Positions 1 through 11,420 of a stretch of DNA of 11,420 nucleotides are shown piece after piece. The number at the start of each line of letters is the position of its first letter. Position 1 is the first letter of the stretch. A program made the position numbers and the translations under genes. The notes under the pieces were generated by a model. That model worked only from the letters and a program-made list of their open reading frames with translations, was not told where the DNA came from and did no database searches. Source of the stretch: a virus; IMG/VR virus record IMGVR_UViG_3300028902_000418, positions 1 through 11,420 of that record, one strand, 5' to 3'.

Positions 1-141
1 CAAGCCCAGGTAACGAACGGCTTACCGTGTCCCTCGGTCCGTTCCTTGTGGGCCTTGCTCTCGGCCGCTAGTTTCTGCTGCTGCGCCTCAATGTCCTGCA
101 ACGTGGCCGGCTTGGTTGGTGCCTTCGCCTTAAGCTCGGCC
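1..141. repeat. Terminal overlap copy 1, identical to 11280-11420 (circularisation signature)
   Basis: Base-by-base comparison: caagcccaggtaacgaacgg...ccttaagctcggcc occurs at both window ends. Confidence 0.97.
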
Positions 142-794
142 TTCACCGCAGCCAGGGCAGCGCGTGCGCTTTCCCTCGTCGCCTTTCCGTTCCTCAGCTC
201 GTGCACCAGCTTGTTGCACGCTGGCACGTTCATGGCGGCCAGGTGGTTCACGATGTTCAGGATTTCCACGTCCTCGGTGATTCCGTCCTCCATCAGATGA
301 CGTGCGGTGATGCAGTAATCCGGGTGCGACAACGCCAGGCGCTTGGATACCCAAGCCGGCGACTTCTTCACCACGGCGCAAACCGCTGCAACGCTCTTAA
401 GCTTGTTGTGCAGTTCCCGGATCGCGTCCACCTGGTCGGCTAGGTCCAAGTCCTCCCGCTGGATGTTCTCTGCGAGCTGGTTGACCAGACGGTCGGCCGT
501 GCTGGTCTTAACGACCGTGGCCGGGATCATCTTTTGACCAAGTAACTTGATAGCCCGGAAGCGCCGTTCGCCCAAGGTCAGTAAGTAGCGTTCATCGCTA
601 ATCGGTGTGACTTCGACCGGCTGCCGTAGCCCTCGGGCCTCGATGTCGGCCGCGAGTTCGGCAATGGAGGCGTTATCGAACTGTTTTCGCACCTGGGCTA
701 GCACCTCGATTCGGTCAATGGGGATCAACAGGATTTCCGCAATGGCTTTTGGCGGGGGGAGGGCTTTCGCTGGCGAAACTTTCTTGGTGGTCAT
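1..794 (-). CDS. ParB/Srx-family (ParB N-terminal domain plus HTH) protein, N-terminal 5' part. The gene continues across the circular junction into 11279..10967, 368 aa in total
   Basis: Manual translation of the minus strand from ATG 794-792 (GAGGA 6 nt upstream; alternative ATG at 800) is open to the window edge: MTTKKVSPAKALPPPKAIAEILLIPIDRIEVLAQVRKQFDNASIAELAADIEARGLRQPVEVTPISDERYLLTLGERRFRAIKLLGQKMIPATVV...KSPAWVSKRLALSHPDY... It has the ParB-box architecture, including the GERRFRA arginine patch. It is absent from the ORF track because no stop lies inside the window on this side. Confidence 0.85.
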   Translation of the reverse strand, partial: MTTKKVSPAKALPPPKAIAEILLIPIDRIEVLAQVRKQFDNASIAELAADIEARGLRQPVEVTPISDERYLLTLGERRFRAIKLLGQKMIPATVVKTSTADRLVNQLAENIQREDLDLADQVDAIRELHNKLKSVAAVCAVVKKSPAWVSKRLALSHPDYCITARHLMEDGITEDVEILNIVNHLAAMNVPACNKLVHELRNGKATRESARAALAAVKAELKAKAPTKPATLQDIEAQQQKLAAESKAHKERTEGHGKPFVTWA

Positions 795-796
795 GA

Positions 797-1000
797 TCAT
801 TCCTCAATGTGTTGTTGACGGTAGTGGTGGTAATCGTCCATGCACTCAAGCCCGAAGTCGTAGCCGGCGTTGTAAGCCTCCAGCGCAATGCCGGTCCGGT
901 CGTAAGGGTGGCGGTAGGGGTTGAACTCGGAACCGTCGTTTCGTCCCGTTTCGTAGTCCTGGTGGTTCGGGTGGCGCCAGTCGGCAGCGGGGTGGCTCAT
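797..1000 (-). CDS. Hypothetical 67-aa protein (MSHPAADWRHPNHQDYETGRNDGSEFNPYRHPYDRTGIALEAYNAGYDFGLECMDDYHHYRQQHIEE)
   Basis: ORF-track frame 797..1033. ATG 1000 is preferred because it forms an ATGA overlap with the upstream ORF stop, and its own stop overlaps the ATGATCATG start region of the ParB-like gene. No recognisable family. Confidence 0.5.
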   Translation of the reverse strand: MSHPAADWRHPNHQDYETGRNDGSEFNPYRHPYDRTGIALEAYNAGYDFGLECMDDYHHYRQQHIEE

Positions 1001-1215
1001 TGCAGTTCCCGTGCTCTCGAAGACGGGCAGCAAATACGGTCGCCGTCTATGTCGAAGCCGTAACTTGATCCCGTTAGTATCCAGTTAGGGGCGTCCAGGC
1101 TGTAGCCGTGCACGTCGTCGAACATGTTGAAGCCGTGTTCTGCTTTCAGGTCGGGCACTGAGTTGGTGTCTCCCGTCCTTGTCCACGGATTGTCTTTGTA
1201 GGCTTTCAGGGTCAT
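997..1215 (-). CDS. Hypothetical 72-aa protein (MTLKAYKDNPWTRTGDTNSVPDLKAEHGFNMFDDVHGYSLDAPNWILTGSSYGFDIDGDRICCPSSRARELQ)
   Basis: ORF-track frame 997..1326. The internal ATG 1215 is preceded by GGAGAA at 7 nt, whereas the annotated 1326 start has no SD and an Arg/Pro-rich low-complexity N-terminus. First gene of the minus-strand operon. Confidence 0.5.
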   Translation of the reverse strand: MTLKAYKDNPWTRTGDTNSVPDLKAEHGFNMFDDVHGYSLDAPNWILTGSSYGFDIDGDRICCPSSRARELQ

Positions 1216-1481
1216 AGCTCGGTTCTCCAATGGGTTTGACTTCCACAACGCACCCCCGGCGGAGGGGCGGGACTTTCGCCAAAAGGAACGGAGGGGGCGC
1301 GGGGTAGGCGGCTTGCAAGTCGGCATGCCAGCGGGGGCAGTCCGGCGAACGGAATAAAGGCTTCATCTTTATGCCGGATCGCCGGCCGCTGGCGGGACGG
1401 CTTGCCGTTTAGGCCGCCTGCGCCCCTGGAGTGGGATGAAGGCCCGCCCCTTTGCCGGGGTACGCGCGCAGCGCCATTCTT

Positions 1482-1515
1482 GCCCTGTCCTGCCCGGAGG
1501 GCGGGAGGACAGGGC
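1482..1515. other. Strong GC-rich stem-loop (about 14 bp with one bulge) in a noncoding region
   Basis: GCCCTGTCCTGCCCG-gaggg-CGGGAGGACAGGGC. 1482-1496 pairs with 1502-1515, and g1492 is bulged. There is no adjacent T-tract, so it is not a classic terminator. Confidence 0.7.
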
Positions 1516-1600
1516 GGAGCTTTCGTCACGCCTTGGCCGTTCGGCGGGGTAGCGTCGGCGCTGGATCTTCTGCCGGCGCTTCGCCGCGGTTGGCCTGGTC

Positions 1601-1639
1601 AATGCGATACAGGATCTTTTCCCGATCGCGTATCGCTTT
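1601..1639. repeat. Copy A of a 36-bp hairpin-forming direct repeat (partner at 10675-10713)
   Basis: 1604-1639 GCGATACAGGATCTTTTCCCGATCGCGTATCGCTTT versus 10678-10713 GCGATACACGATTGCTTTCCGATCGCGTATCGCTTT: 31/36 identical, including an uninterrupted 18-mer CCGATCGCGTATCGCTTT. Internal inverted arms 1601-1615 / 1625-1639 match at 12/15. Confidence 0.9.
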
Positions 1640-1850
1640 GATGCCGTTGGGCAAGGGATTGGAAGGGCCGCAGGTCCCGCAGGGATGAAACCCTGTAAAA
1701 GCCCGGTGCTGGAAGCATGCCCCCTGCATTAAAATCGGTGGATGCTCCCGCCCTGGGCGAACCTGCTGTGCAACCTCTACTACTTGAAACGGTATTGCCG
1801 TGCACCCGACCATGCCTGCCGTCGTCGAGCCTGGCGCAAAATCGCAGTCG

Positions 1851-1887
1851 AAAAAAAACGCCTTCTAAGCGAAGGCGTCTCTTTCTT
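1851..1887 (-). terminator. Rho-independent terminator of the repressor gene (potentially bidirectional)
   Basis: AAAAAAAA-CGCCTTC-taagc-GAAGGCG-tctctttctt. Perfect 8-bp stem ACGCCTTC/GAAGGCGT (1858-1865 / 1871-1878) with a 5-nt loop. On the minus strand it is followed by a run of 8 T, 30 nt downstream of the repressor stop. Confidence 0.85.
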
Positions 1888-1916
1888 GGAACTGCACCTG
1901 GTCTGTCGATACTTGA

Positions 1917-2429
1917 CTAACCCGCGCAACCAAAACGCGGCATTAAGGCTCCGAGCCTACCGATCACAGCTCGTCCTATTTCCCTGAGCTTGCCCCGAAT
2001 AGTTGACATAATGCCAAATGTATAAACCTGTGAACCCTGCAACGGCGCGGGTTGCGGGGCAGGGGATGACACTTTAAAAGTGTCAACGCTGGCGGCTTCG
2101 GCGTTCGTTGGGGCAGCCGTCCCGATAGTCGCAGCCGCTGCACTCGCAATTAACCAGGTCGCCGCCTTCCGTGGTAGATCGAGGACAAAAGGGGCAAATA
2201 CCGCCCTTTTCTCGGGATTCTTCTCAGTGACCAGTTCCGAGGCCGCGACCACAATCTTTTCGTCTATGCCGAGGATCGCCGCGAGCTTGTAGCACGCGGC
2301 GACAGGCAGGCCGCGCCTTCCGGCTTTGGCCGACGTTAAAACGTCGGGATGTACGCCTATTACTTTCGCCATAGCCTTTTGATCTTCATGGCGTTTCGTG
2401 GCTTCCTCGATCATGTCGCGCAGGTTCAT
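1917..2429 (-). CDS. Phage repressor-like helix-turn-helix protein (170 aa)
   Basis: N-terminus MNLRDMIEEATKRHEDQKAMAKVIGVHPDVLTSAKAGRRGLPVAACYKLAAILGIDEKIVVAASELV has the layout of a Cro/CI-type HTH. It is transcribed divergently from the replication/morphogenesis genes, as in temperate inoviruses. GGA-type SD lies upstream (aaggatgaataaATG). The C-terminal half is Ala-rich with no recognisable domain. Confidence 0.7.
   Translation of the reverse strand: MNLRDMIEEATKRHEDQKAMAKVIGVHPDVLTSAKAGRRGLPVAACYKLAAILGIDEKIVVAASELVTEKNPEKRAVFAPFVLDLPRKAATWLIASAAAATIGTAAPTNAEAASVDTFKVSSPAPQPAPLQGSQVYTFGIMSTIRGKLREIGRAVIGRLGALMPRFGCAG
2067..2085. repeat. Inverted repeat TGACACTTT-a-AAAGTGTCA (9-bp arms), function unknown
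   Basis: Read directly. It lies inside the 3' half of the repressor ORF, next to an unusually AT-rich stretch (1998-2030). Confidence 0.8.
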
Positions 2430-2447
2430 TTATTCATCCTTGATCGC

Positions 2448-2477
2448 TTGACAGCAGGCAAAAGTGCCTGCTATGGT
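2448..2477 (+). promoter_or_regulatory. Candidate sigma70 promoter for the rightward (replication/morphogenesis) operon, with an embedded operator palindrome
   Basis: TTGACA (2448-2453), 18-nt spacer, TATGGT (2472-2477). The spacer is almost entirely the perfect inverted repeat GCAGGCA-aaag-TGCCTGC (2454-2471). It sits 19 nt from the divergent repressor start codon. Confidence 0.55.
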
Positions 2478-2565
2478 TCTGGCAGTCAACTTTGCCGGCC
2501 GCCTAATTTGTCGGTTCGCCGGCACTCTGCACCACCAGAGCCGTTCACGTCAAGGGGGAACACAG

Positions 2566-2922
2566 GTGTTAAACCTGGTCGAACGCTGCAAAGGAACGAT
2601 TTACGAGGGCCTAGCCCTGCACGAACGCCCGGCGCAGGGCGTTTCACCATTTCCATACCTGAGCCTGTCCGAGCTGATCGAACTCTGCTCGAAGCCCTAC
2701 CCGCCGTTTCAAGGCGGCCGCCCGGATCGCGCCCAGAAGGTGGGGGCCGCCCGCAGCGCCGAAGGCGCGAGGACGGCCCCCACCTCGGGCGGCCGGTCGG
2801 AAATAGCCGACCGCCAGCTAGGGTTATTCGACCCTGAAAAGCTTTACGTGCTAGTTACACGTAAAGTTAGTCTCACTCCTGAGACTTTTAAGACAATACC
2901 TGAGCGGGGGATAGGGTCATGA
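2566..2922 (+). CDS. Possible 118-aa hypothetical protein upstream of the replication gene (alternatively noncoding origin or leader region)
   Basis: GTG 2566 is preceded by AAGGGGGA. The mid-portion has GC-rich third positions, and the stop forms an ATGA overlap with the pII-like start at 2919. Against it: no recognisable domain, and the 3' third is occupied by four stem-loops. Confidence 0.3.
   Translation: MLNLVERCKGTIYEGLALHERPAQGVSPFPYLSLSELIELCSKPYPPFQGGRPDRAQKVGAARSAEGARTAPTSGGRSEIADRQLGLFDPEKLYVLVTRKVSLTPETFKTIPERGIGS
2738..2886 (+). other. Cluster of four consecutive stem-loops immediately upstream of the replication-initiator gene (candidate origin or packaging-signal region)
   Basis: (1) 12-bp stem 2738-2749 / 2774-2785 (AGGTGGGGGCCG/CGGCCCCCACCT) with a nested GCGCC-gaa-GGCGC. 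(2) CGGTCGG-aaatag-CCGACCG, 2794-2813. (3) CTTTACGTG-ctagtta-CACGTAAAG, 2842-2866. (4) AGTCTCA-ctcc-TGAGACT, 2869-2886. Confidence 0.6.
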
Positions 2923-3935
2923 AACCCTGTTCCCGCGTTCCGGTTTTTGTCGATTGGGTGACCATGCGGCAGGATCATGGCCAGGATGGCGCACCCATCA
3001 TTAACGGTGGCCAGGTCATCACGGTCGACTCGGATGGATCGGTCGACTACGTGGTGGAACGCCGTAGCGGCCTCGAAGGGTCGTTTGATTCCCGGTGTGA
3101 TGTCCGGTCGGATGGCTCCGTCGTGGAGTTCTCCGGAAATATCTCTCGCTTCAATCGACGTGACAACCTGTTCGGCTATGACTGGCCGGAAACCGTCCGC
3201 CGGATTAATTCCCTTCTGAACCTGTATTCGCTGCCGCCGTTCTCGGCCGGAAAGCTGTTCCGCTTCGCCGATGCGGGATGGACTTGGACAGGTGCCAGGG
3301 CGTCGCGGATTGACGTGACCATGAACCGGACGTGTTTTACAGAAGAGGGCGGCCAGGTCGTTCTAAAGGGATTGGCCGCGCAGCACGTCGGGCGGCAGAA
3401 AGGCGTTCTCTCGCCCGATGGCGCAACGGTGGCTTACGGCACCGGCAGCAAATACGTCTACGGAAAGGTCTACTCCAAATATGCCGAAATGCTGGCGCAT
3501 CGTCGGCGTCGCAGCGGTGCCCATGTCGATGATGAAGTCATCGAGTTTTGCCGGGCGCATGGGGTGTTGAGGGAAGAATTTACGCTGAAGTCACGTTTTC
3601 TGACTCAGCGGCAATGCGCGTATCTAGGGGCTATCGATCAGGACTATCTGACTAGCATTTTTCTGGAACGCACGCAGTTTAGGAGGTTCGAGCAAATGAA
3701 ACATGACAAATTCGACGATCTGCCGCGCCATCTTCGCGCGACGTATGTCTCGTGGCGCGATGGCTTGCCGCAAGGGATTAGCAGGGCGACCTTCTACAAG
3801 CATCGGACCAAGCTACTTGAATACGGCGTCGACATTTCGGTTCCGAATAATGTCCTTCGGATGCCGGTGAGGATTCGCACGGTCGATGTTGCCGCGCTGG
3901 AGGCTCCCGCCTGGTATCGCCAGCGGTACGGCTGA
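2919..3935 (+). CDS. Filamentous-phage replication initiation protein (pII-like rolling-circle initiator, 338 aa)
   Basis: First large gene of the rightward operon. N-terminal ...VPVFVDWVTMRQ... resembles the xDWxT start of gene II/CRI-type initiators. The C-terminal segment LRATYVSWRDGLPQGISRATFYKHRTKLLEYGVDIS resembles the phage-X-type tail. Synteny: it is immediately followed by the ssDNA-binding and coat genes. GGGGGA SD lies 7 nt upstream. Confidence 0.75.
   Translation: MKPCSRVPVFVDWVTMRQDHGQDGAPIINGGQVITVDSDGSVDYVVERRSGLEGSFDSRCDVRSDGSVVEFSGNISRFNRRDNLFGYDWPETVRRINSLLNLYSLPPFSAGKLFRFADAGWTWTGARASRIDVTMNRTCFTEEGGQVVLKGLAAQHVGRQKGVLSPDGATVAYGTGSKYVYGKVYSKYAEMLAHRRRRSGAHVDDEVIEFCRAHGVLREEFTLKSRFLTQRQCAYLGAIDQDYLTSIFLERTQFRRFEQMKHDKFDDLPRHLRATYVSWRDGLPQGISRATFYKHRTKLLEYGVDISVPNNVLRMPVRIRTVDVAALEAPAWYRQRYG
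3696..3935 (+). CDS. Candidate pX-like protein from an internal in-frame start within the replication gene (79 aa)
   Basis: AGGAGG (3681-3686), the best SD match I noticed in the window, lies 9 nt upstream of the in-frame ATG 3696 (3696-2919 = 777 = 3 x 259). This is analogous to Ff gene X nested in gene II. Confidence 0.45.
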   Translation: MKHDKFDDLPRHLRATYVSWRDGLPQGISRATFYKHRTKLLEYGVDISVPNNVLRMPVRIRTVDVAALEAPAWYRQRYG

Positions 3936-4000
3936 ACGGTTCTTCGCGCCCGGATTCGCCGCACGGGGTAACGCGTAAATAGGCGACAAGGAGATTCAAA

Positions 4001-4312
4001 ATGGGTATCGAAAAAGTGAAAGTAACGGGCGTCAAGTTCTTCAAGGATTCCATTGACGGCAAGATGATCGACAGCGGCAAGGTGTTTATCGAGGAGGCGC
4101 TCGATTTCACCACCAAGCGGGCGAAGGGCTACGCAACGCAGGAATACAGCGTCGGCAGCGCCGAAGTCGCACAAGGGCTCATGCATAACGAGTTCCCGAT
4201 CATCGCCGAAGTTGAATTCCTGCGTGTGACCAATGGCGATGTTTCCAAGAATATCGTTACGTCGGTCCGTCCGGTCGAAAGCGGCGCGCCTCGCGGTAAG
4301 GCGGCTGCGTAA
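4001..4312 (+). CDS. Probable ssDNA-binding protein (pV-like, 103 aa)
   Basis: Size and position (between the replication gene and the coat genes) match inovirus gene V. Strong SD in the motif GGAGATTCAAA-ATG, which is shared with the major coat gene. The sequence itself is not recognisably assignable by eye. Confidence 0.55.
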   Translation: MGIEKVKVTGVKFFKDSIDGKMIDSGKVFIEEALDFTTKRAKGYATQEYSVGSAEVAQGLMHNEFPIIAEVEFLRVTNGDVSKNIVTSVRPVESGAPRGKAAA

Positions 4313-4476
4313 TGCGCTGGTCGCTGTCCTTCGAGTATGGCTCCAACCGTCAAGGTGTCAGCGGTGATGACGGTTTGGAGCCTGGCGGCCAGCCTGACGG
4401 CTCGTATTTCCTTTGGCTGTTCCTTTGTCTGCTCATCGCTAGCGGCATGGGGCCTGACGAAAAGGAAATTCTCTAA
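4312..4476 (+). CDS. Small hydrophobic protein, 54 aa (below the ORF-track cut-off); candidate minor virion or assembly protein
   Basis: MRWSLSFEYGSNRQGVSGDDGLEPGGQPDGSYFLWLFLCLLIASGMGPDEKEIL. TAATG stop-start overlaps at both ends (4310-4314 and 4474-4478). One predicted TM segment. Confidence 0.45.
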   Translation: MRWSLSFEYGSNRQGVSGDDGLEPGGQPDGSYFLWLFLCLLIASGMGPDEKEIL

Positions 4477-4826
4477 TGCCCTTCGCTTACGCCGGTCACT
4501 GCTACGCCACTGCCGGCGAAGCGTTAAAGGCATTCCAAAAAACCTTCCCGATTCTCGGGGATACGACGTGGCAATGGCATACGTCCTCAAGCATCAATGC
4601 GTCGGGGTTGATCACCTACAACCTGAACACCAAGCCGACCACCACGAACACGGTGTCGGCCAGGACGGGAACGATGCAGCTTGCGAGCTGCGCAACGCCC
4701 GATGCAGCGGTCTTTGATCCGGTGGCAGCGGGGGGCGTATTCGCCTTCTTCTTCCTTGGCGTGGCTGGCACCTGGTATCTCGCGCAAAACCTCGGCTTGA
4801 TTCTCGAAGCCGTCAAGAAGTGGTAA
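4476..4826 (+). CDS. Hypothetical membrane-anchored protein, 116 aa (C-terminal TM); possible minor coat or assembly protein
   Basis: ORF track. SD AAAAGGAAA upstream. C-terminal hydrophobic helix GGVFAFFFLGVAGTWYLAQNLGLIL. Located just upstream of the major coat gene. Confidence 0.6.
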   Translation: MPFAYAGHCYATAGEALKAFQKTFPILGDTTWQWHTSSSINASGLITYNLNTKPTTTNTVSARTGTMQLASCATPDAAVFDPVAAGGVFAFFFLGVAGTWYLAQNLGLILEAVKKW

Positions 4827-4891
4827 CGATTTCCGGCAAGGTTGCCGAAACCGGCGCGGCGGTATCCGCGCACTAGTGGGAGATTCAAACC

Positions 4892-5131
4892 ATGAAACTG
4901 CAATTTCGTTCGCTGCGCAATCGCACCATCGGCCAAGCCGGTGTTGTCGCCTCCGCCACCATCCTGGCTCAACAGGCGATGGCTGCCGGTCCCGACCTCT
5001 CGACCGTGACCGCTGCTGTCGACTTCGGCACCGTTACCACTGCCGTGCTCGGCGTGGCGGCGGCGCTGATCGTCGTCTACATCGCCTGGAAGGGCGCCAA
5101 GATGGTGATTGCTGCGGTTAAGGGCGGCTAA
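4892..5131 (+). CDS. Major coat protein (pVIII-like), 79-aa precursor with signal peptide
   Basis: MKLQFRSLRNRTIGQAGVVASATILAQQAMA / AGPDLSTVTAAVDFGTVTTAVLGVAAALIVVYIAWKGAKMVIAAVKGG. It has an Ala-x-Ala cleavage site and a 48-aa mature peptide with an acidic N-terminus, hydrophobic core and Lys-rich C-terminus, which is the classic inovirus coat layout. Strong SD GGGAGA; terminator directly downstream. Confidence 0.9.
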   Translation: MKLQFRSLRNRTIGQAGVVASATILAQQAMAAGPDLSTVTAAVDFGTVTTAVLGVAAALIVVYIAWKGAKMVIAAVKGG

Positions 5132-5146
5132 TCATCGATGCCGTTT

Positions 5147-5182
5147 AAGGGGAGGGGATGTGCACGTCCTCTCCCTTTATTT
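5147..5182 (+). terminator. Rho-independent terminator or attenuator after the major coat gene
   Basis: AAGGGGAGGGGA-tgtgcacg-TCCTCTCCCTTT: 12-bp stem (two G-U pairs) followed by TTTATTT. This matches the placement of the post-gene-VIII terminator in Ff phages. Confidence 0.75.
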
Positions 5183-5203
5183 CGCAAGCGAAAGGGGAAC
5201 ATC

Positions 5204-5527
5204 ATGGCGGGACCTGACTTGTCGGTGATAACAGCGGTGGTTGATTTTGGAAGCGTAGTCGGTGCGGTTTTAGGCGTCGCGGCGGCGTTGATTGTGGCGT
5301 TCGTCGCACAGAAAGGGGCGCGCATGGTTCTTGATGCGGTGCGCGGTGGATCGATGGTAAGCCCGGAACGGTATTACGTTGGTAATGATGGGGAGTCGTG
5401 GACCGAAACCGGTTTACAAGATGCTTGGAATTCGATGGATCATGCAGAGCAAAACGCGTGGGGTAGTTCAAGCAACTTCCTTGAGAATTTCACGGAAGTG
5501 GATAAGAACGGCCGAGTTCTTAAATGA
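5204..5527 (+). CDS. Coat-protein paralog lacking a signal peptide, with a 58-aa acidic Trp-rich C-terminal extension (107 aa)
   Basis: M-AGPDLSVITAVVDFGSVVGAVLGVAAALIVAFVAQKGARMVLDAVRGG aligns without gaps to the mature coat protein (34/48 identical). It begins exactly at the predicted cleavage site. SD AAAGGGGAA lies 5 nt upstream of ATG 5204. The track start at 5138 would read through the terminator hairpin. Confidence 0.7.
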   Translation: MAGPDLSVITAVVDFGSVVGAVLGVAAALIVAFVAQKGARMVLDAVRGGSMVSPERYYVGNDGESWTETGLQDAWNSMDHAEQNAWGSSSNFLENFTEVDKNGRVLK

Positions 5528-5613
5528 ACACAGTTGACGCCTGGTATCTCGTCTTTGCCCTCTATGGCCTTATGGCGTCCTGGGCAATGATCAAAGGTCT
5601 GAGTGATGACTAA
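5524..5613 (+). CDS. Very small hydrophobic protein, 29 aa (pVII/pIX-like size class)
   Basis: MNTVDAWYLVFALYGLMASWAMIKGLSDD. ATGA overlap with the upstream stop (5524-5527), and its stop overlaps the pIII-like start. Below the ORF-track threshold. Confidence 0.4.
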   Translation: MNTVDAWYLVFALYGLMASWAMIKGLSDD

Positions 5614-7042
5614 TCGGCGCGTTGTGTCGTGGGCGGTGGTTGTTGCGCTGCTCGTTTCTCAGGGTAGCGCGTGGGCAGCTCTGCCGGTGATTTATACGGC
5701 GTTGCGGATTGGTGCGCAGTCGTATTCATTGTCCAAGTTGGCGGAAGCGGGGCAAAGTCTGGTTGGACAGGCAGTGAAAGAGCTTGACGCATCGTTGGCG
5801 CCGATCACGAACGCGATAACGGGTGCAGAGTCGACCGCTGTTGGTGTTCGTATTCCGTTATCGACGGATGCTTCGGCAGCGGTGCCGGTTCCGTCAGCGG
5901 CGGCGACGGCGACTGTTGTTTATACGGTCAATAATCCGGGTGGGGTCAGTCCTCCCGAAGTGTTCACATCGTCCACGGCGGCCGGGGCGCAGGCGGCGGC
6001 GTGTAGTGGTTTTACGGCTAACAAGCTGAGTTATTGCGGCGCTACGGCTACGGGTGTGAATTTGCGTAACCAGACGCTTACGGGGTCGACGTGTAACTTC
6101 CAATATCAATGCGTGTTTTCAGGGTCGACAGGGGGGTGGCTTAGTTCTTCGTTGTCGGTAACTGCGGTCGGAGGGTGTCCGTCTGGTTACACGTACTCGG
6201 CGGGTGCGTGTAATTTAACGAATGCGCGGTTGACAGATGCCGTGGCGGACTACTCGCGTAGCGGGACGGGCTTTAGCGTCTATAGCGGTGATACGTGCGC
6301 AACGTGTGATTGGCTGTCGGCTCAGACGATCACTAATACGAATGACACGTTGAGAATAAGCGGCATGACATCGCCGACCGGGGTGGACGTGATTAGTCGG
6401 CCGATGGTGATTAGCGTTCAAAACACGGCGGACGGTGGAAGTGTGTTGACAACGCAAGTTCAAAGAACGGATGGTTCGGGCGCGACCTATACACAGACAA
6501 CAACGATGACAGTGAGTCCGGCGTCGGTGGTTACGGCGGCCACTGTGACCAATACGGCGCAAGCGTTGACGTCGAATGCGGCGGGAAATAGTTGGACGGT
6601 TGGATCTGCTCCAACGTCGTCTTATGCGCCAGCAGCGACGGCGGCGGCTGCTCAAACAATTACATTTCCTAACGACTATGCGAGGCAGGGTGAGGCAGCG
6701 GCGGCGGCGTCCTCGATCAATTCAACGCTTGGGCCGAAGCTCGACAAGCTTGACACGGACATAAACAAGATTACGGAGACCGGGGCCGATCCGGCTGATC
6801 CGACAGTTCCCGGTGACACTGAATGGAATGATGCATTTTTCAAAGACACGTTTACTTCGCTATTAGGCTGGCGGCTGCCGGCGCACAGCTCGCAATGTCC
6901 GGTTGCGTCTTTTGATTTCAACGGCAACACGTATTCAATTAATTCGCATTGTCAGTTGATAGCCGATCACTTCGGGACGCTCTCGGCCGCTATGGCGGTG
7001 GTCTGGACGGTTATAGCGTTGTTTATTCTCTTGGCGGCGTGA
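5603..7042 (+). CDS. pIII-like adsorption / minor coat protein (479 aa)
   Basis: Signal peptide MMTNRRVVSWAVVVALLVSQGSAWA. Cys-rich N-terminal half, Thr/Ser/Ala-rich linkers, and a C-terminal membrane anchor LSAAMAVVWTVIALFILLAA preceded by a Cys pair (SSQCPVASFDFNGNTYSINSHCQL). Position between the coat and pVI-like genes. The start could be GTG 5603 or ATG 5606. Confidence 0.75.
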   Translation: MMTNRRVVSWAVVVALLVSQGSAWAALPVIYTALRIGAQSYSLSKLAEAGQSLVGQAVKELDASLAPITNAITGAESTAVGVRIPLSTDASAAVPVPSAAATATVVYTVNNPGGVSPPEVFTSSTAAGAQAAACSGFTANKLSYCGATATGVNLRNQTLTGSTCNFQYQCVFSGSTGGWLSSSLSVTAVGGCPSGYTYSAGACNLTNARLTDAVADYSRSGTGFSVYSGDTCATCDWLSAQTITNTNDTLRISGMTSPTGVDVISRPMVISVQNTADGGSVLTTQVQRTDGSGATYTQTTTMTVSPASVVTAATVTNTAQALTSNAAGNSWTVGSAPTSSYAPAATAAAAQTITFPNDYARQGEAAAAASSINSTLGPKLDKLDTDINKITETGADPADPTVPGDTEWNDAFFKDTFTSLLGWRLPAHSSQCPVASFDFNGNTYSINSHCQLIADHFGTLSAAMAVVWTVIALFILLAA

Positions 7043-7043
7043 T

Positions 7044-7334
7044 ATGGCTATGCCCCTTCTTCTAGCGCCGGTCCTGACGTGGGTTTTCCGGGAAGTCGTT
7101 GTTAAGTTCCTGGTGTTTACGGCGGTTTTCGCCCTGGTGGCTTTCCTTGTGCCGAAAGCTGTTGCGTACCTGGGCGGCTTCGTCAATCCCGGTGGCTTGT
7201 CGTCGGCGTTCGGTGCGGTCAGTCCGGGCGTCTGGTACTTCCTCGATTTCTTCCAACTCGGCTACGGTGTGCCGCTGGTTATTGCGGCCTACGTCGCACG
7301 TTTCTTGATTCGTAGACTTCCATTCATAGGGTGA
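7044..7334 (+). CDS. pVI-like minor coat protein (96 aa, multi-TM)
   Basis: MAMPLLLAPVLTWVFREVVVKFLVFTAVFALVAFLVP...VPLVIAAYVARFLIRRLPFIG. Small, very hydrophobic, and starts 1 nt after the pIII-like stop, which is the canonical gIII-gVI order. Confidence 0.7.
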   Translation: MAMPLLLAPVLTWVFREVVVKFLVFTAVFALVAFLVPKAVAYLGGFVNPGGLSSAFGAVSPGVWYFLDFFQLGYGVPLVIAAYVARFLIRRLPFIG

Positions 7335-7338
7335 TGCC

Positions 7339-7575
7339 ATGATCATGGACTTAAATTGGTGGAACGAGTTGGCCGGGACGACTCAGCGGGGAGTTAAGCA
7401 GATTCACGAAAAAGGCGTGGACGCCTTCGTTGTCTTGGTCGGTGGCTTCGGAACGTTCGCATCATCGAACGTGAAGGAATCGCAGGATGCCGCGCGACGT
7501 TGGGTCGACACGGGTATTGCAAGGGAACGCGTCCGTATTAAGCGCGTTACGGTTCCATCAAGTCGGATCAGGTGA
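7339..7575 (+). CDS. Hypothetical 78-aa protein in a non-canonical position between pVI-like and pI-like genes
   Basis: ORF track. GGGTGA SD-like sequence 4 nt upstream. No recognisable family. Confidence 0.5.
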   Translation: MIMDLNWWNELAGTTQRGVKQIHEKGVDAFVVLVGGFGTFASSNVKESQDAARRWVDTGIARERVRIKRVTVPSSRIR

Positions 7576-7579
7576 TTCT

Positions 7580-7810
7580 ATGAAACTCGAACCGGTGGAT
7601 TTCACGGCCGTTGACGTCGATCTTCGCCGGATGCGTGGTTTGCTTCGTCGCATGGCGAAGTCGCACCGCAAGAACACGGGGGCGAGCATTCACGAGTCGG
7701 TGAGGGTGGCGCAACTATATATGGCGCATCAATTTGCGCGCCGCCTAACTCCGCGGCTTCGGGAGGCCGTGGCATTCGTCCGTGTGGCGCTTTCGCACGC
7801 GAAAAGTTAG
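7580..7810 (+). CDS. Hypothetical 76-aa basic, helical protein
   Basis: Frame of track ORF 7487..7810. ATG 7580 (MKLEPVDFTAVDVDLRRMRGLLRRMAKSHRK...) lies 4 nt after the upstream stop and avoids a 90-nt overlap. The SD is weak. Confidence 0.45.
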   Translation: MKLEPVDFTAVDVDLRRMRGLLRRMAKSHRKNTGASIHESVRVAQLYMAHQFARRLTPRLREAVAFVRVALSHAKS

Positions 7811-7818
7811 GAGCTGAC

Positions 7819-7965
7819 GTGCTGGAGGAATTCAGGGAGGCGCTGGAAGTAGCGTCTAACATCGGCTTTGTTCTTGGCCTGACGGTGGGGATGGGCTTGG
7901 GTGCCTCGCTCGGTTTTGTACTCGGCTTCCGAATTGGGCAGGGGCGGGACGATCATGTCGATTAA
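7819..7965 (+). CDS. Small membrane protein, 48 aa (below the ORF-track cut-off)
   Basis: AGGAG 5 nt upstream of GTG 7819. MLEEFREALEVASNIGFVLGLTVGMGLGASLGFVLGFRIGQGRDDHVD has one Gly-rich TM. It overlaps the pI-like start by 11 nt. Confidence 0.35.
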   Translation: MLEEFREALEVASNIGFVLGLTVGMGLGASLGFVLGFRIGQGRDDHVD

Positions 7966-9034
7966 GTCCTATGTCGGCCGGATGGGGTCCGGCAAGACTT
8001 ACGAGGTAGTCGCGTCGGTTATCGTTCCGGCGCTCGCACGTGGCCGCCGTGTCGTGTCGAACATCGCCGGCCTAGATCTTGACGAGATTCGCGGGCTACT
8101 GGTCGAACAGGGCGTTCCGTTCGAGAAGATCGGGGTGCTTGTCCTGGTCAATCACGCGGATGTGCTGCTGCCGGAATTCTGGCGCACGGACAAGGATCAG
8201 GCCGAAGGCTTTGACAGTTTCATCCAGCCCGGTGACTTGGTGGCGCTCGATGAAATTTGGCGTTTCTGGGAAGGCTTCGCCAATCGCAAGATGCCTGATC
8301 GGGTGATGAACTTTTTCCGGATGCATCGGCATTTTACGCATCCGGAAACTGGCGTCGCCTGTGACGTGGCGCTAATCACGCAGGACGTGATGGACATCAG
8401 CCGTAAGGTTCGCGCCGTAGTCGAAGAAACCTACGGCATGGAGAAGTTGACGGCCATCGGCAGCACCAAGCGTTACCGCGTCGACGTCTTTCAGGGAACG
8501 AGGACCACGCGCCGACCCTTGCGCCAGCTCCAACGCGAATACGACCCGCGCTATTTCCCGTTGTACTCGTCCCATAGTCAGAAGAAGGAAGGGGACGCGG
8601 ACGCCGTAGAAGAAAACATAGACAGTCGGGGCAACATCCTTAAGGGCGCATTGTTCAAGATCGTGCTTCCGCTCGGTGCGTTGGCGATGGCTGGTGCGGT
8701 CTGGCTGGTGTGGGGCTTCTTCCACCCCGTACAGAAGCCGGCAGCGGCGCAGCTCGATGCCAAGGGCAAGCCCGTAGCGGCTGGCGCCGCGGCGTCGGCT
8801 TCGCAAGCGAAAACATCCCCCGATGTGTCGTCAGAATGGAGAGCGGCCGGCTTCGTGCTTGATTCGTCCGGGTCGTCTGTTGTGCTGGTGGATGGCCGGC
8901 GTGTTCGGGTAGTTCAAAATCCGCCTGGCTTGCGAATCACGCTAGGGTCGGTCGAAATGATTCTCCCGAGTGGTGAGGCCGTGACTTCCTGGGGCGGTCA
9001 TCAGTCGTCCGGGTTGCTTCCGGGGGCGAAATGA
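7955..9034 (+). CDS. pI / Zot-family assembly ATPase (359 aa)
   Basis: MSIKSYVGRMGSGKTYEVV places a Walker A (GxxGSGKT) within the first 15 residues, as in Zot/pI. DEIW is a Walker-B-like motif. There is a central TM (IVLPLGALAMAGAVWLVWGFF) and a periplasmic C-terminal domain. ATG 7955 with a G-rich SD is preferred over the track's GTG 7901. Confidence 0.9.
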   Translation: MSIKSYVGRMGSGKTYEVVASVIVPALARGRRVVSNIAGLDLDEIRGLLVEQGVPFEKIGVLVLVNHADVLLPEFWRTDKDQAEGFDSFIQPGDLVALDEIWRFWEGFANRKMPDRVMNFFRMHRHFTHPETGVACDVALITQDVMDISRKVRAVVEETYGMEKLTAIGSTKRYRVDVFQGTRTTRRPLRQLQREYDPRYFPLYSSHSQKKEGDADAVEENIDSRGNILKGALFKIVLPLGALAMAGAVWLVWGFFHPVQKPAAAQLDAKGKPVAAGAAASASQAKTSPDVSSEWRAAGFVLDSSGSSVVLVDGRRVRVVQNPPGLRITLGSVEMILPSGEAVTSWGGHQSSGLLPGAK

Positions 9035-10278
9035 AGCGCCTGGCGTTCGTGCTGGCGTTGCTGGTGTCTTTGATGGCGCACGGTGAAACCGTGTCCGTGT
9101 CCTTGTCCGAAGTGCGGCTTGTTGATCTGGTGTCTGTGGTCTTTGGGCAGATCAGCAAAGAACCCTATGTTCTGGGGTCGGAGGTCTTGGCTGCCGAGGA
9201 ACGGTACACGCTCGATCTTCGGAATGTCCCGGTGTCTCAAGTCGTAGCGTCGGTCACTGCACTAGCGCAGTCGGCCGGCTTCGAGGTCGAACGGCGCGGG
9301 GGTGTGGTGCGGATCGGCAAGGCGGCCGAGGCGGTAGAGGAATCGATCGTGTACCGGCCGCGTTATCGTTCGGCGCGCTACCTGGCTGACGTGGTGCAGA
9401 GTGTGACCGGGGCGCGTTCGGTGCTGGCACGGTCGCTGCGCAAATCGGAAGATTTGCAGGGAGCAAGGCCCGCAATGGCGGGGCAGGGCGGCCAGATCGC
9501 GCCGGCACAGGTCCAAGGCAGTCCGTCGAGTGTTGAAGGGCAGATAGACCGCAGCGAGGTCGACCAGATCGCGTTTAGCGTGGTTCCGAAGGATGCGGTC
9601 AAGGTCCGCAAGCTCTTGGCCGACTTGGACACGCCGACCGCCGAAATTGTCCTCAAGGCGGTCGTGTACGAGGTCGGCGTTAATCGTGCCGATGGATCGG
9701 CGGTGCAGTTGGCCGTTCACGTCGCTGGCTTGTCCGGCGTGCTGGCCGGAAATGTCCTTTCCGGCGCATCCTTGAAGTTCTCCAGCGGTGGCATAGAGGC
9801 TGTCTTATCGGCCCTGGATGCCGATTCTCGGTTTAAGTCCATCTCTCGGCCTCAGCTGAGGGTTAAAAACGGCGTGCAGGCCCGTTTTAGCGTCGGGCAG
9901 GATGTGCCCGTTGTGGGCCAGGTGCAGGTCGACAAGAACGGCAACCCGGTGAGTTCGGTTGAATACAAGCAAAGCGGGGTGATTCTTACCGCAACGCCTG
10001 AGATTCGCCAGGACGTTATTGAACTGGTCTTGAATCAGGAACTGAGTAATTTCGTCTTGACCAAGACCGGCGTTAACAACTCGCCGACGCTTATTAAGCG
10101 GTCGGTCAATACTCGGTTGCAGCTCGTGCCTGGTGAAGTGGTCATGCTGGCCGGCCTCGAAGATGAAACAGAGGACGAGTCGACTAGCCGGGTTCCGTTC
10201 CTGGGCTGGCTGGTTGGCCAGGATCGAACGCGCAAGCGTTCTGAAATCCTTGTCTTTATCGAGGCCGTGAAAATTTGA
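9031..10278 (+). CDS. pIV-like secretin (outer-membrane export channel, 415 aa)
   Basis: Signal peptide MKRLAFVLALLVSLMAHG. The C-terminal secretin core is recognisable (SRPQLRVKNGVQARFSVGQDVPVVG...YKQSGVILTATPEI...TRLQLVPGEVVMLAGL...SRVPFLGWL). ATGA overlap with the pI-like stop. Confidence 0.85.
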   Translation: MKRLAFVLALLVSLMAHGETVSVSLSEVRLVDLVSVVFGQISKEPYVLGSEVLAAEERYTLDLRNVPVSQVVASVTALAQSAGFEVERRGGVVRIGKAAEAVEESIVYRPRYRSARYLADVVQSVTGARSVLARSLRKSEDLQGARPAMAGQGGQIAPAQVQGSPSSVEGQIDRSEVDQIAFSVVPKDAVKVRKLLADLDTPTAEIVLKAVVYEVGVNRADGSAVQLAVHVAGLSGVLAGNVLSGASLKFSSGGIEAVLSALDADSRFKSISRPQLRVKNGVQARFSVGQDVPVVGQVQVDKNGNPVSSVEYKQSGVILTATPEIRQDVIELVLNQELSNFVLTKTGVNNSPTLIKRSVNTRLQLVPGEVVMLAGLEDETEDESTSRVPFLGWLVGQDRTRKRSEILVFIEAVKI

Positions 10279-10315
10279 TATGCTGTCGGCAAATGCCGAG
10301 AGGATAGGGGGCCGT

Positions 10316-10660
10316 ATGGACGTAACGATCTGGCTTTATCAGACGCAGCAGCGGGCCGGCGAGTGGTTCAATTCGCTTGGGCCGGACGATTTCTATATGG
10401 CTTGGCTGGCGTCGGGTGTTGTCTTGTTTGCTGTGCTGGCCCGTATCTCGTATTTGATCATGCGTCGGGCGTTGGGCCATCGGCGGTTTCGTGGCACCTG
10501 GTACAACGAAATCGAATTTGAAGTGCTGTTGAAGATGATCGAAGAAGATATTGAGTCCGGCCGGCGCGTCATGCGACATGATGAAATGACGTTGTATCGG
10601 TCCGCAAAACTCGGTTGGTCAAGTCCGGTCATTCGCCATAATCCGGGCAGCTATTTCTAG
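10316..10660 (+). CDS. Hypothetical single-pass membrane protein (114 aa), last gene of the rightward operon
   Basis: Track ORF 10280..10660. The in-frame ATG 10316 has a GGGGG SD 5 nt upstream. TM FYMAWLASGVVLFAVLARISYLIM is followed by a charged domain. No recognisable family. Confidence 0.5.
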   Translation: MDVTIWLYQTQQRAGEWFNSLGPDDFYMAWLASGVVLFAVLARISYLIMRRALGHRRFRGTWYNEIEFEVLLKMIEEDIESGRRVMRHDEMTLYRSAKLGWSSPVIRHNPGSYF

Positions 10661-10674
10661 TAGGTGAGGGGTCT

Positions 10675-10713
10675 AAAGCGATACACGATTGCTTTCCGAT
10701 CGCGTATCGCTTT
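10675..10713. terminator. Copy B of the 36-bp repeat; a 15-bp-stem hairpin between convergent operons (candidate bidirectional terminator)
   Basis: AAAGCGATACACGAT-tgctttccg-ATCGCGTATCGCTTT (one A/C mismatch). It is flanked by AAA and TTT. It lies 15 nt after the + strand stop (10660) and 12 nt after the - strand stop (10725). Confidence 0.65.
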
Positions 10714-10724
10714 CGCCTGCGAAA

Positions 10725-10970
10725 TCACGGCCGTTCGTCGCAGCGTTCCCCGCGCTCGATCAGCTCCAGTGCCGTCCGCTGGTCCTTGATCCGCTTCGAG
10801 CCAGCTAGGACCATTTCGCGGATTTTGATCTTTGCGAAATCCCGCTCCTTCTTGTCCTGGCTGGTAATCATCGCCAGCAGCCCGCAACACCGACCTATGA
10901 ACTCGTGCGGGTTCTCCTGGCGGCTGAACTCCATCAAAGCATCCGTCTTGTTGTCGGTGGCGGTTTTCAT
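10725..10970 (-). CDS. Hypothetical 81-aa protein, last gene of the ParB-like operon
   Basis: ORF track. The start forms an ATGA overlap with the ParB-like stop (10967-10970). MKTATDNKTDALMEFSRQENPHEFIGRCCGLLAMITSQDKKERDFAKIKIREMVLAGSKRIKDQRTALELIERGERCDERP. No recognisable family. Confidence 0.55.
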   Translation of the reverse strand: MKTATDNKTDALMEFSRQENPHEFIGRCCGLLAMITSQDKKERDFAKIKIREMVLAGSKRIKDQRTALELIERGERCDERP

Positions 10971-11420
10971 ACCTGGTGTCCCATCTTCACCAGTGCGGCC
11001 GTCCGGTTGGCGTCCTCGATGTGGTTTAGAAATGTTTTAAATGCGGTGTTGTCGCCAAGTTCCTTGATGTTTCCGAGTCGCAGCAGGACATCGATCAGCA
11101 TCATGCCGTTGTTCAAAGCCGGTGCCCATTGCGCCAGGGTCATGCCGGCCAGTTCGGCGCAACGCTCTCGAACGTGCTTGATCAACGCCGCCTTCTGCTC
11201 GGCCTTGAGCGTGTCATACCACTTGGCCGCAACGTCCTTTTCTTCGCACGGCTCATAGATCATGTCGTCAAGCTTCGACCAAGCCCAGGTAACGAACGGC
11301 TTACCGTGTCCCTCGGTCCGTTCCTTGTGGGCCTTGCTCTCGGCCGCTAGTTTCTGCTGCTGCGCCTCAATGTCCTGCAACGTGGCCGGCTTGGTTGGTG
11401 CCTTCGCCTTAAGCTCGGCC
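10967..11420 (-). CDS. ParB/Srx-family protein, C-terminal 3' part (same gene as 1..794; bases 11280-11420 duplicate 1-141)
   Basis: The frame of track ORF 10967..11380 stays open to the window end and is in phase with the 1..794 segment across the junction (794 + 313 nt = 369 codons). The C-terminal region ...SKLDDMIYEPCEEKDVAAKWYDTLKAEQKAALIKHVRERCAELAGMTLAQWAPALNNGMMLIDVLLRLGNIKELGDNTAFKTFLNHIEDANRTAALVKMGHQV has no recognisable family. Confidence 0.85.
   Translation of the reverse strand, partial: AELKAKAPTKPATLQDIEAQQQKLAAESKAHKERTEGHGKPFVTWAWSKLDDMIYEPCEEKDVAAKWYDTLKAEQKAALIKHVRERCAELAGMTLAQWAPALNNGMMLIDVLLRLGNIKELGDNTAFKTFLNHIEDANRTAALVKMGHQV
11280..11420. repeat. Terminal overlap copy 2, identical to 1-141
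   Basis: Same as copy 1. The reading frame of the minus-strand ParB-like ORF is continuous when 11279 is joined to 1. Confidence 0.97.

Follow-up and report, generated by a model that had tools for sequence, protein, structure and literature searches.

The canonical site of the chromosome-partition protein ParB is parS, TGTTTCACGTGAAACA, and the ParB paralogue Noc, which has the site NBS (ATTTCCCGGGAAAT), is able to work without the ATPase ParA. KorB, encoded by the IncP-1 plasmid RK2, is a ParB-type CTPase (CTP, cytidine triphosphate) that forms a sliding clamp and acts as a global repressor; the clamp is locked by the small proteins KorA and TrbA, and RK2 carries 12 OB sites (PMC11790492). 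The KorB–KorA and KorB–TrbA pairs are precedents for small partners that act on a ParB-type clamp. The BisD–BisC system of ICEclc is built around an orphan ParB-like CTP clamp of 550 amino acids (aa), BisD, which activates distant promoters, has a 23-bp palindrome (GAGCTATCCCCnGGGGATAGCTC) as its site and is partnered by the FlhC-like protein BisC (PMC12409273). Further orphan ParB-CTPases, encoded outside parAB operons, have been surveyed on mobile elements and prophages (PMC12704722). The subject of the present analysis is a member of the same superfamily in a filamentous phage (inovirus), namely a gene, here called parB, that lies across the two ends of IMG/VR virus record IMGVR_UViG_3300028902_000418 (positions 1 to 11,420; this whole 11,420-nt stretch of DNA is referred to as the window), together with a short palindrome present in five copies on the same DNA. 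Since dozens of related phages share this pairing of an orphan ParB with a parS-like site, it has the appearance of a control or maintenance module not described so far.

An orphan ParB across the junction of an inovirus circle

Since positions 1–141 and 11280–11420 of the window are identical (a 141-bp terminal redundancy), the window represents an 11,279-bp circle, the G+C content of which is 58 %. A small circular genome, a rolling-circle replication protein of the Phage_CRI family (Rep), a Zot/pI ATPase, a secretin (pIV) and small coat proteins identify its owner as an inovirus. On the minus strand of this circle, parB is divided by the junction. The 5' part (1..794; codons 1–265 of 368) encodes a ParB_N domain, a KorB-type helix-turn-helix (HTH), a linker helix and the start of a C-terminal domain, and the 3' part (10967..11279; codons 266–368 and the stop codon) encodes most of that domain, which is all-helical and specific to the family. 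An earlier inspection of the letters and their open reading frames (ORFs), hereafter the sequence-only reading, had joined 794..1 to 11279..10967 in just this way, and the 368-codon frame is indeed uninterrupted and closed by a stop. In a minor point, however, that reading had mixed two starts: the ATGA overlap with the stop codon of the preceding gene, orf67, belongs to an in-frame ATG at position 800, which would make a protein of 370 aa, whereas it is the ATG at 794 that is better spaced relative to the GAGGA Shine–Dalgarno sequence.

By domain, motif and fold, the product of this ORF is a genuine member of the ParB/Spo0J superfamily. Pfam ParB_N (PF02195) covers residues 22–112 at E=1.4e-16 (60.7 bits versus a cut-off of 26.3), and the best NCBIfam match is TIGR00180, 'ParB/RepB/Spo0J partition protein' (E=2e-23, 83.1 bits versus 58.45); the Pfam KorB HTH domain (PF08535), at residues 144–218, is a marginal match (E=9e-5, 22.8 bits versus 22.3). 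The PHROGs matches are to ParB-like partition proteins, and a profile of 50 homologues finds Spo0J, ParB, Noc and KorB chains in the PDB at 4e-35 to 3e-18. The features on which the sequence-only reading had based its ParB/Srx assignment, i.e. a ParB-box layout including GERRFRA (residues 75–81, within ParB_N) and an HTH-like segment (KSPAWVSKRLAL, residues 144–155), are thus joined by a domain match, the fold and the motifs of a CTP pocket. Ten residues in the pocket region are invariant across the 50 homologues (Q34, R36, G75, R77, R78, A81, E109, N110, Q112 and R113), as are W148 and K151 of the HTH. GERRFRA represents box II (GxxRxxA), and boxes I (QxR) and III (ENxQR) align to QPR and ENLQRE of Spo0J from T. 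thermophilus. In an AlphaFold2 model with a mean predicted local distance difference test (pLDDT) score of 91.7, the first ~220 residues superpose on CTP- or cytidine diphosphate-bound ParB, Noc and KorB (Foldseek, ~200 residues, E about 1e-9). The conservation of these motifs suggests that the protein uses CTP and closes as a clamp.

Outside the clamp core, the model consists of a long helix and then a predicted helical bundle at residues 232–363. The C-terminal region had earlier been called unassignable, and in that no family matches its ~135 aa the description stands (Pfam has no match past residue 218, and a canonical PF23552-type dimerisation domain is absent); its prediction as a domain made up entirely of helices is, however, a confident one. 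At the N-terminus, MTTKKVSPAKALPPPKA, the protein is basic and rich in Lys, Ala and Pro, with a low pLDDT and no predicted helix. Pfam detects no fused enzymatic domain.

The protein has no ParA partner. On the doubled circle, the sole Walker A motif in ORFs of at least 60 aa (GRMGSGKT) is that of Zot, as the sequence-only reading had it, and no locus of a close relative has an ORF with the ParA-type motif KGGxGK[ST]; ParA-type ORFs occur only beside remote canonical ParB matches, in loci that have no Zot. ParB proteins that bind ParA have the motif (L/F/I)G(K/R)G(L/F/I) (PMC12704722), and this was found in 0 of the 50 family members, the ParB of the window included. Because both the adjacent ParA and the ParA-binding motif are missing, the locus is, judged by its sequences, not a ParABS system.

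Homologues in a large protein database form a coherent family of 355–430 aa with 33–54 % identity. When the family alignment was scanned against one genome per species and against IMG/VR, 80 loci (L001–L080) were obtained, 49 of which encode a true family member; in 46 of these 49, a Zot gene, sought with an iterated hidden Markov model, lies within a few kb of parB, and the three exceptions are truncated contigs. The surroundings are those of free-circle or integrated inoviruses with Phage_CRI, Zot and secretin genes, often with a tyrosine integrase gene diverging from parB. An integrase is encoded in 19 of 38 ParB-positive relatives, several of which sit inside chromosomes. According to the record titles, the hosts are mostly Betaproteobacteria, including Sulfuritalea, Rhodocyclaceae, Dechloromonas, Methyloversatilis and Paraburkholderia, as well as Trinickia, Gallionellaceae, Nitrosomonadales, Thiobacillaceae and Hydrogenophilales. 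There is no full-length relative among the plasmids of PLSDB (the best match covers 48 % of the protein) or the phages of GenBank (43 %). The ParB lineage is thus nearly specific to inoviruses across betaproteobacterial hosts. The view that ParB stands outside the canonical inovirus gene set holds to the extent that no description of an inovirus ParB was found in the searchable literature, but the gene is a recurrent, nearly inovirus-specific module and not the oddity of a single phage. One locus, L004 (JGI Ga0255338_1002728), contains two tandem copies of the same ParB-positive inovirus, being either a tandem prophage or a circle that was assembled twice.

A multi-copy palindrome linked to parB

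The sequence-only reading had proposed looking for a parS-like palindrome on the circle, and a candidate emerged from a de novo scan of 38 non-redundant ParB-positive loci and the window for any palindrome with 6+6 arms and a spacer of 0–10 nt. The clear winner was TTTCGC-NN-GCGAAA, which is present in 32 of the 39 regions, usually as (G)TTTCGCATGCGAAA(C), and has the family consensus GTTTCGCATGCGAAAC. In the window there are five copies against 0.04 expected, a number reached in 0 of 200 shuffles. Palindrome 1 (TTTCGCTGGCGAAA, 765..778) occupies codons 6–10 of parB, and the same site in relatives reads KVSHAK in frame. Palindrome 2 (TTTCGCAAGCGAAA, 5180..5193) lies just past the terminator-like hairpin behind the coat gene, with 10 nt separating it from the ATG of a coat paralogue, and palindrome 3 (TTTCGCACGCGAAA, 7791..7804) lies 14 nt upstream of a small ORF that precedes Zot. 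Palindrome 4 (CTTCGCAAGCGAAA, 8799..8812), which has one mismatch, falls in the segment encoding the Zot linker, where the site of relatives reads VSHAK, and palindrome 5 (TTTCGCCTGCGAAA, 10711..10724) abuts the stop codon of orf81, the gene directly 3' of parB; palindromes 2, 4 and 5 have syntenic counterparts in relatives. Altogether, 37 of the 38 relatives carry 1–6 copies per phage, often at syntenic positions, namely parB itself or its immediate vicinity, the Zot linker, and the stretches that follow orf81 and the coat gene.

The palindrome is tied to parB and to phage DNA. A segment comprising parB and 60 nt on either side holds a site in 33 of the 38 loci, compared with 9.6 +/- 2.6 under random placement (maximum of 20 in 5,000 trials). 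For 16 chromosomal loci, 126 kb of upstream host DNA contains no exact site versus 38 on the phage side, 18 of them in the 2 kb that hold parB, and for this lack of any copy in the flanking host DNA a host repeat or a host parS was rejected. The peptide KVSHAK is simply an in-frame translation of the palindrome (AAA GTT TCG CAT GCG AAA), it recurs in the Zot linker because the palindrome is read in frame there too, and the probability of the exact palindromic codons given KVSHAK is ~8e-4 under the codon usage of the family itself. A role for the conserved N-terminal AKVSHAK as a ParA- or partner-binding peptide was rejected on these three grounds and, as regards ParA, is also countered by the absence of the canonical ParA-binding motif.

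How the sites vary bears on what reads them. Beside 90 exact copies there are 23 with uncompensated single changes and three with stem-preserving, compensated changes; it is because compensatory variants are so scarce that the sequence, and not a hairpin, would seem to be what is conserved. The pattern points to sequence-specific recognition by a protein rather than to a hairpin, and a function as an RNA or single-stranded DNA (ssDNA) hairpin was rejected for lack of compensatory variation. The existence, the enrichment and the parB linkage of the palindrome are computed directly, and from them we infer that it is probably the binding site of ParB.

As a control, 80 IMG/VR inoviruses were fetched by Zot similarity alone and tabulated for the presence of ParB and of sites. 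The palindrome is found in all four ParB-positive loci and in six of 76 that are ParB-less; the 70 ParB-less loci without it include complete circles whose Zot is nearer to that of the window than is the Zot of many ParB-positive phages. Across these genomes, the palindrome follows ParB much better than it follows phage phylogeny. Four of the six site-bearing, ParB-less loci (L084, L113, L118 and L127) are contigs without a terminal repeat, apparently incomplete, which by their Zot and secretin coordinates end where the ParB module would lie; L127 ends just past an orf81 homologue. An exact 16-mer scan of IMG/VR led to two complete circles, L083 (8,173 bp, with a direct terminal repeat, DTR, of 127) and L109 (8,877 bp, DTR 125), and to their relatives L088 and L092. 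Phages of this type encode Rep, pIII, Zot, a CI-like repressor and a HicB-like antitoxin and have no secretin. That L083, L109 and their relatives keep the palindrome shows that a ParB encoded in cis is not required for its persistence. One of the L083 sites is adjoined by a second palindrome, TTGCGCATGCGCAA.

Operon neighbours and the rest of the circle

The ATG of orf81 (10725..10970, minus strand) overlaps the parB stop codon within an ATGA, and its product has the core motif LLAxLTSxxKxERExAKxxVR. Within the family, one subclade has homologues directly 3' of parB, and these usually overlap the parB stop as well. The model of the Orf81 protein consists of three helices at moderate confidence (pLDDT 69). 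As a candidate partner of the KorA or TrbA type, it was rejected, there being no sequence match in the PDB even at E<=10 and no fold match. Upstream of parB, and on the same strand, lie orf67 (797..1000) and orf72 (997..1215), the latter being the first gene of the operon, with a GGAGAA Shine–Dalgarno sequence. The ATGA overlaps (TCAT on the plus strand) at 997–1000, 797–800 and 10967–10970, from which a four-gene operon had been deduced, are all present and, in that sense, the operon is real; however, the conserved core is confined to parB and orf81, with orf72 and orf67 forming a lineage-specific insertion upstream. All three small genes have coding-type G+C at third codon positions, and their products, described before as belonging to no recognisable family, have no match in Pfam, NCBIfam, PHROGs or PADLOC. 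Proteins of the orf67 family are small (61–93 aa) and share the motif NPxxxPGxRTGxALxAYxxG and an acidic tail, the other members being found in phage-like contexts; a word-seeded search with orf67 returned the query itself only. The 80 loci derived from ParB contain no homologue of either orf72 or orf67, and orf72 is an orphan for which no search made found a homologue.

Directly upstream of the operon is a conserved non-coding element (1231..1470, plus strand). Over 230 bp, the sequence 5' of orf72 has 83 % identity to that 5' of parB in locus L001, whereas the two ParB proteins are only 54 % identical. Since this homology reaches as far as the first start codon in each phage, orf72 and orf67 were evidently inserted between the conserved element and parB. 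As ssDNA, 1231–1470 folds into a single long imperfect hairpin (plus strand, -79.1 kcal/mol, z=-6.6), a fold that makes the element a candidate for a packaging signal or a minus-strand origin. The parB operon probably has its own promoter, located in or beyond the element. The element also contains TTTTGGCGAAAG, the L001 equivalent of which, TTTTCGCGAAAG, corresponds to the half-sites of the palindrome without a spacer.

Further upstream, a repressor-like HTH gene (1917–2429, minus strand) is followed by a terminator-like bidirectional hairpin with a T-run at 1852–1884. This hairpin forms the end of a conserved non-coding block (1640–1905) that is 73–75 % identical to L007 and L192 and that the ParB-less inoviruses L114 and L133 share. 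The ParB operon is bracketed by imperfect inverted repeats of ~40 bp (1599–1641 and 10675–10713) with a common 16-nt arm, GATCGCGTATCGCTTT, which amounts to four half-sites versus 0.24 expected; the right arm of the second copy (IR-B) overlaps palindrome 5. These repeats were the first parS candidate and were rejected because they have no counterpart in about 190 related loci. Stand-alone proteins of ~99 aa that resemble the C-terminal domain of the RNA polymerase alpha subunit (PF03118, E=1e-17 to 5e-20) are encoded in L005 (9425–9724), L192 (9973–10272) and L131 (1078–1374). Such a gene belongs to the ParB operon in two distinct relatives, overlapping the parB stop in L192, and one also occurs in a ParB-less inovirus; with only two distinct ParB-positive phages, it is a weak lead to transcription control.

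The remainder of the circle is that of an inovirus. In addition to the Phage_CRI/G2P Rep (2919–3935), Zot/pI (7901–9034) and the secretin (9031–10278), there are genes for a G5P-like protein, coat proteins, a pIII-like protein and a pVI-like protein. The parB operon is co-directional with the repressor-like gene and convergent on the structural genes. No integrase, transfer RNA (tRNA), Rfam family or dif-like XerCD site was found in the window. Behind the major coat gene (4892–5131) come a terminator-like hairpin with a T-run (about 5148–5179) and then the coat paralogue (about 5204–5527), the N-terminal half of which repeats the coat sequence; in relatives there is a tandem pair of coat paralogues as well, with the palindrome in between. 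Comparison of the window with L001, L003, L005 and L007 indicates that its replication module (2919–4312) is mosaic. The closest structural relatives, whose Rep is 425 aa in length, contain nothing that corresponds to the Rep of the window (338 aa) or to its ssDNA-binding protein. These two proteins are 80–82 % identical to those of L007, a Sulfuritalea metagenome-assembled genome, whose Zot is only 27 % identical to that of the window.

Comparison with known clamps and a proposed role

The best sequence and structure matches for residues ~20–220 are to chromosomal ParB/Spo0J and Noc, and the CTP-pocket motifs are the same in type. The arms of the palindrome have TTTC...GAAA in common with parS and NBS, although its centre is 2 bp longer than that of parS. 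One of the parS sites of B. subtilis lies inside spo0J itself, and palindrome 1 likewise lies inside parB. Unlike Spo0J and ParB, the protein is encoded by a phage, has no ParA and no LG(R/K)GL motif, and ends in a different C-terminal domain; unlike Noc, it lacks an amphipathic N-terminal membrane-targeting helix, and its score against TIGR04285 is 74, the cut-off being 315. With KorB, it shares the order of a disordered N-terminus, a CTP-binding N domain, an HTH, a charged linker and a C-terminal domain, as well as a match to PDB entries 8qa8 and 8qa9 (E=2.8e-18 for 8qa8 with the family profile). Both systems have several short palindromic operators dispersed on a small replicon and small proteins in the same operon. 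The KorB operator is TTTAGC-S-GCTAAA, so its half-site TTTAGC differs from TTTCGC by one base, and a TTTC...GAAA core is common to the half-sites of both. However, the operator spacer is 1 nt in KorB and 2 nt here, the phage has no IncC/ParA partner or ParA-interacting peptide, the C-terminal helical bundle has no detectable similarity to that of KorB, orf81 resembles neither KorA nor TrbA, and the carrier is an ssDNA filamentous phage instead of a conjugative plasmid. With operator, IncC, KorA and C-terminal features all differing, the protein is, as far as sequence comparison goes, not a KorB orthologue. BisD, to which the locus can be compared by description, has a ParA-less ParB-like N part, a linker, a unique and exclusively helical C-terminal domain, a small partner on the same element, and a few palindromic loading sites inside genes, and it too belongs to an integrative mobile element (PMC12409273); this is a likeness of function and architecture, not a demonstrated family relationship. 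The ParB-CTPase fold, the location on a mobile element and outside a parAB operon and the lack of a ParA-binding motif are also those of the surveyed orphan ParB-CTPases, but that survey makes no mention of inoviruses or filamentous phages, of this lineage, or of its partner gene or palindrome (PMC12704722). By analogy, its mode of action would be closest to that of KorB or BisD, and the orphan ParB-CTPases are a class into which it fits.

The reading we prefer, with a probability of roughly one in two, is that ParB is a ParA-independent CTP clamp which, loaded at phage-borne sites, serves in the manner of KorB or BisD as a cis-acting regulator or organiser of the replicative form or the prophage. 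In such a mechanism, ParB would dimerise and, through its HTH, read the TTTCGC-NN-GCGAAA sites, of which three belong to the coat and assembly module, the other two falling in the 5' coding end of parB itself and just after orf81. The binding of CTP through the QxR, GERRxRA and ENxQRE motifs would lead to closure of the clamp, which would then slide on the double-stranded replicative form or on the integrated prophage; with sites spaced at 1.0–4.4 kb around the 11.3-kb circle, it would be able to reach most of the genome. The biological output, we infer, would be exerted in cis, as autoregulation, as damping or coordination of the transcription of morphogenesis genes and as organisation of the replicative form, and it would be mediated by orf81, which is translationally coupled to parB, and by the helical C-terminal domain peculiar to the family. 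An output of the KorB or BisD kind is favoured by the integrases of relatives, the lack of ParA and of a ParA-binding motif, the dispersal of the sites, the two window sites that head translation units, the unique helical C-terminal domain, the coupled small partner and the co-direction of the operon with the repressor-like gene. Among the three roles that the sequence-only reading had floated, none of them demonstrated, the KorB-like one therefore fits best, whereas a nuclease or anti-defence function is unsupported.

Several observations tell against such a clamp. The five sites of the window have the centres TG, AA, AC, AA and CT, none of which is the AT found in 73 of the 90 sites of the family. 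L083, L109 and their relatives carry 4–5 intergenic copies of GTTTCGCATGCGAAAC with neither a ParB gene nor a pseudogene, and L116 and L183 also have sites and no detectable ParB, with Pfam giving no match to their unassigned ORFs. The ParB-positive loci are related to one another, so that counts over them are not fully independent. As for the partner, no similarity of orf81 to KorA, TrbA or BisC-type proteins is apparent, and its model is only moderately confident. A search for a sigma-70-type promoter of the operon found none. Lastly, DNA binding, use of CTP and phenotype are, at this stage, computational predictions.

The main rival, which need not exclude regulation, is that ParB and its sites form a centromere for segregating the replicative form or the excised phage in chronic infection, whether by borrowing a ParA/Soj-type ATPase of the host or through SMC loading, clustering or nucleoid hitch-hiking. 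A canonical ParB/Spo0J-type core whose best NCBIfam match is named for partition, and parS-like sites in multiple copies, are what such a centromere would have; the window circle, being without integrase, tRNA or dif-like site, may be episomal, and KorB combines regulator and partition functions. Yet ParA is absent from all 46 inovirus loci and the ParA-binding motif from all 50 proteins, the sites are dispersed over the genome instead of forming a single centromere cluster, and, because half of the ParB-positive relatives have an integrase and many reside in chromosomes, partition of an episome cannot be the sole role. We regard segregation as a possible, if rather unlikely, function. Less probable still, and in our estimation unlikely, is that the palindrome is not read by ParB, its association with parB reflecting shared ancestry; a host factor or another phage protein would then recognise it, or it would act as RNA or ssDNA, with ParB binding something else or nothing specific. 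The complete, ParB-less circles L083 and L109 would be readily understood in this way, and the two window sites that stand directly before ribosome-binding sites would suit a role at the RNA level. Shared ancestry, however, sits poorly with the 70 of 76 ParB-less relatives that lack the palindrome, some having structural genes closer to those of the window than many ParB-positive phages do, and with the excess of sites at parB. The lack of compensatory variation, the absence from flanking host DNA, the resemblance of the half-sites to ParB, Noc and KorB sites, and the embedding of sites in the ParB and Zot coding regions at the cost of rare codons argue in the same direction. That ParB-like proteins of this family are nucleases, anti-defence factors or agents of host manipulation, which cut or mask DNA or disturb segregation or defence of the host and have no business with the phage genome, seems very improbable. 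ParB/Srx-fold proteins of prophages have often been proposed as anti-defence factors (PMC12704722), and there are weak PHROG matches to 'ParB-like partition nuclease' and a marginal PADLOC hit (PD-Lambda-5_A, E=2e-4), but it is DNA-clamp ParBs, with an HTH and the complete CTP pocket, that match best and not nuclease-type ParB domains, a fused enzymatic domain is lacking, and the cognate-looking sites are on the phage itself and not in the host flanks.

A broader scheme, which we put forward tentatively and consider doubtful as a whole, is that a ParA-free ParB–parS system governs the double-stranded DNA form of an inovirus lineage by silencing or timing the morphogenesis genes, perhaps with retention of the replicative form as well, and that the ParB-less clade of L083 and L109 could exploit or compete for the ParB of co-resident phages, a form of centromere or operator piracy.

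What appears to be new in this system is an inovirus-specific ParB lineage with a C-terminal domain and a partner of its own, a multi-copy palindrome that lies partly in coding sequence, and a clade that keeps the site without ParB. Filamentous phages are long-term residents of their hosts and shape biofilms, virulence and host fitness; how most of them restrain virion production and keep the replicative form or the prophage stable is, to our knowledge, poorly known beyond a few model phages. If the reading of ParB as a ParA-independent clamp is true, a CTP-switch DNA clamp would join the control devices of inoviruses, and the principle of the sliding clamp as regulator, exemplified by KorB and BisD, would extend from plasmids and integrative and conjugative elements to ssDNA viruses. 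The system is small, comprising a single protein with one small partner and five 14-bp sites on an 11-kb circle, and suits questions on how far a clamp spreads on a tiny replicon, how it affects transcription and rolling-circle replication, and whether co-resident phages can share or steal sites. The palindrome and the ParB family, taken together, are also a practical marker for finding this group of betaproteobacterial inoviruses in metagenomes.

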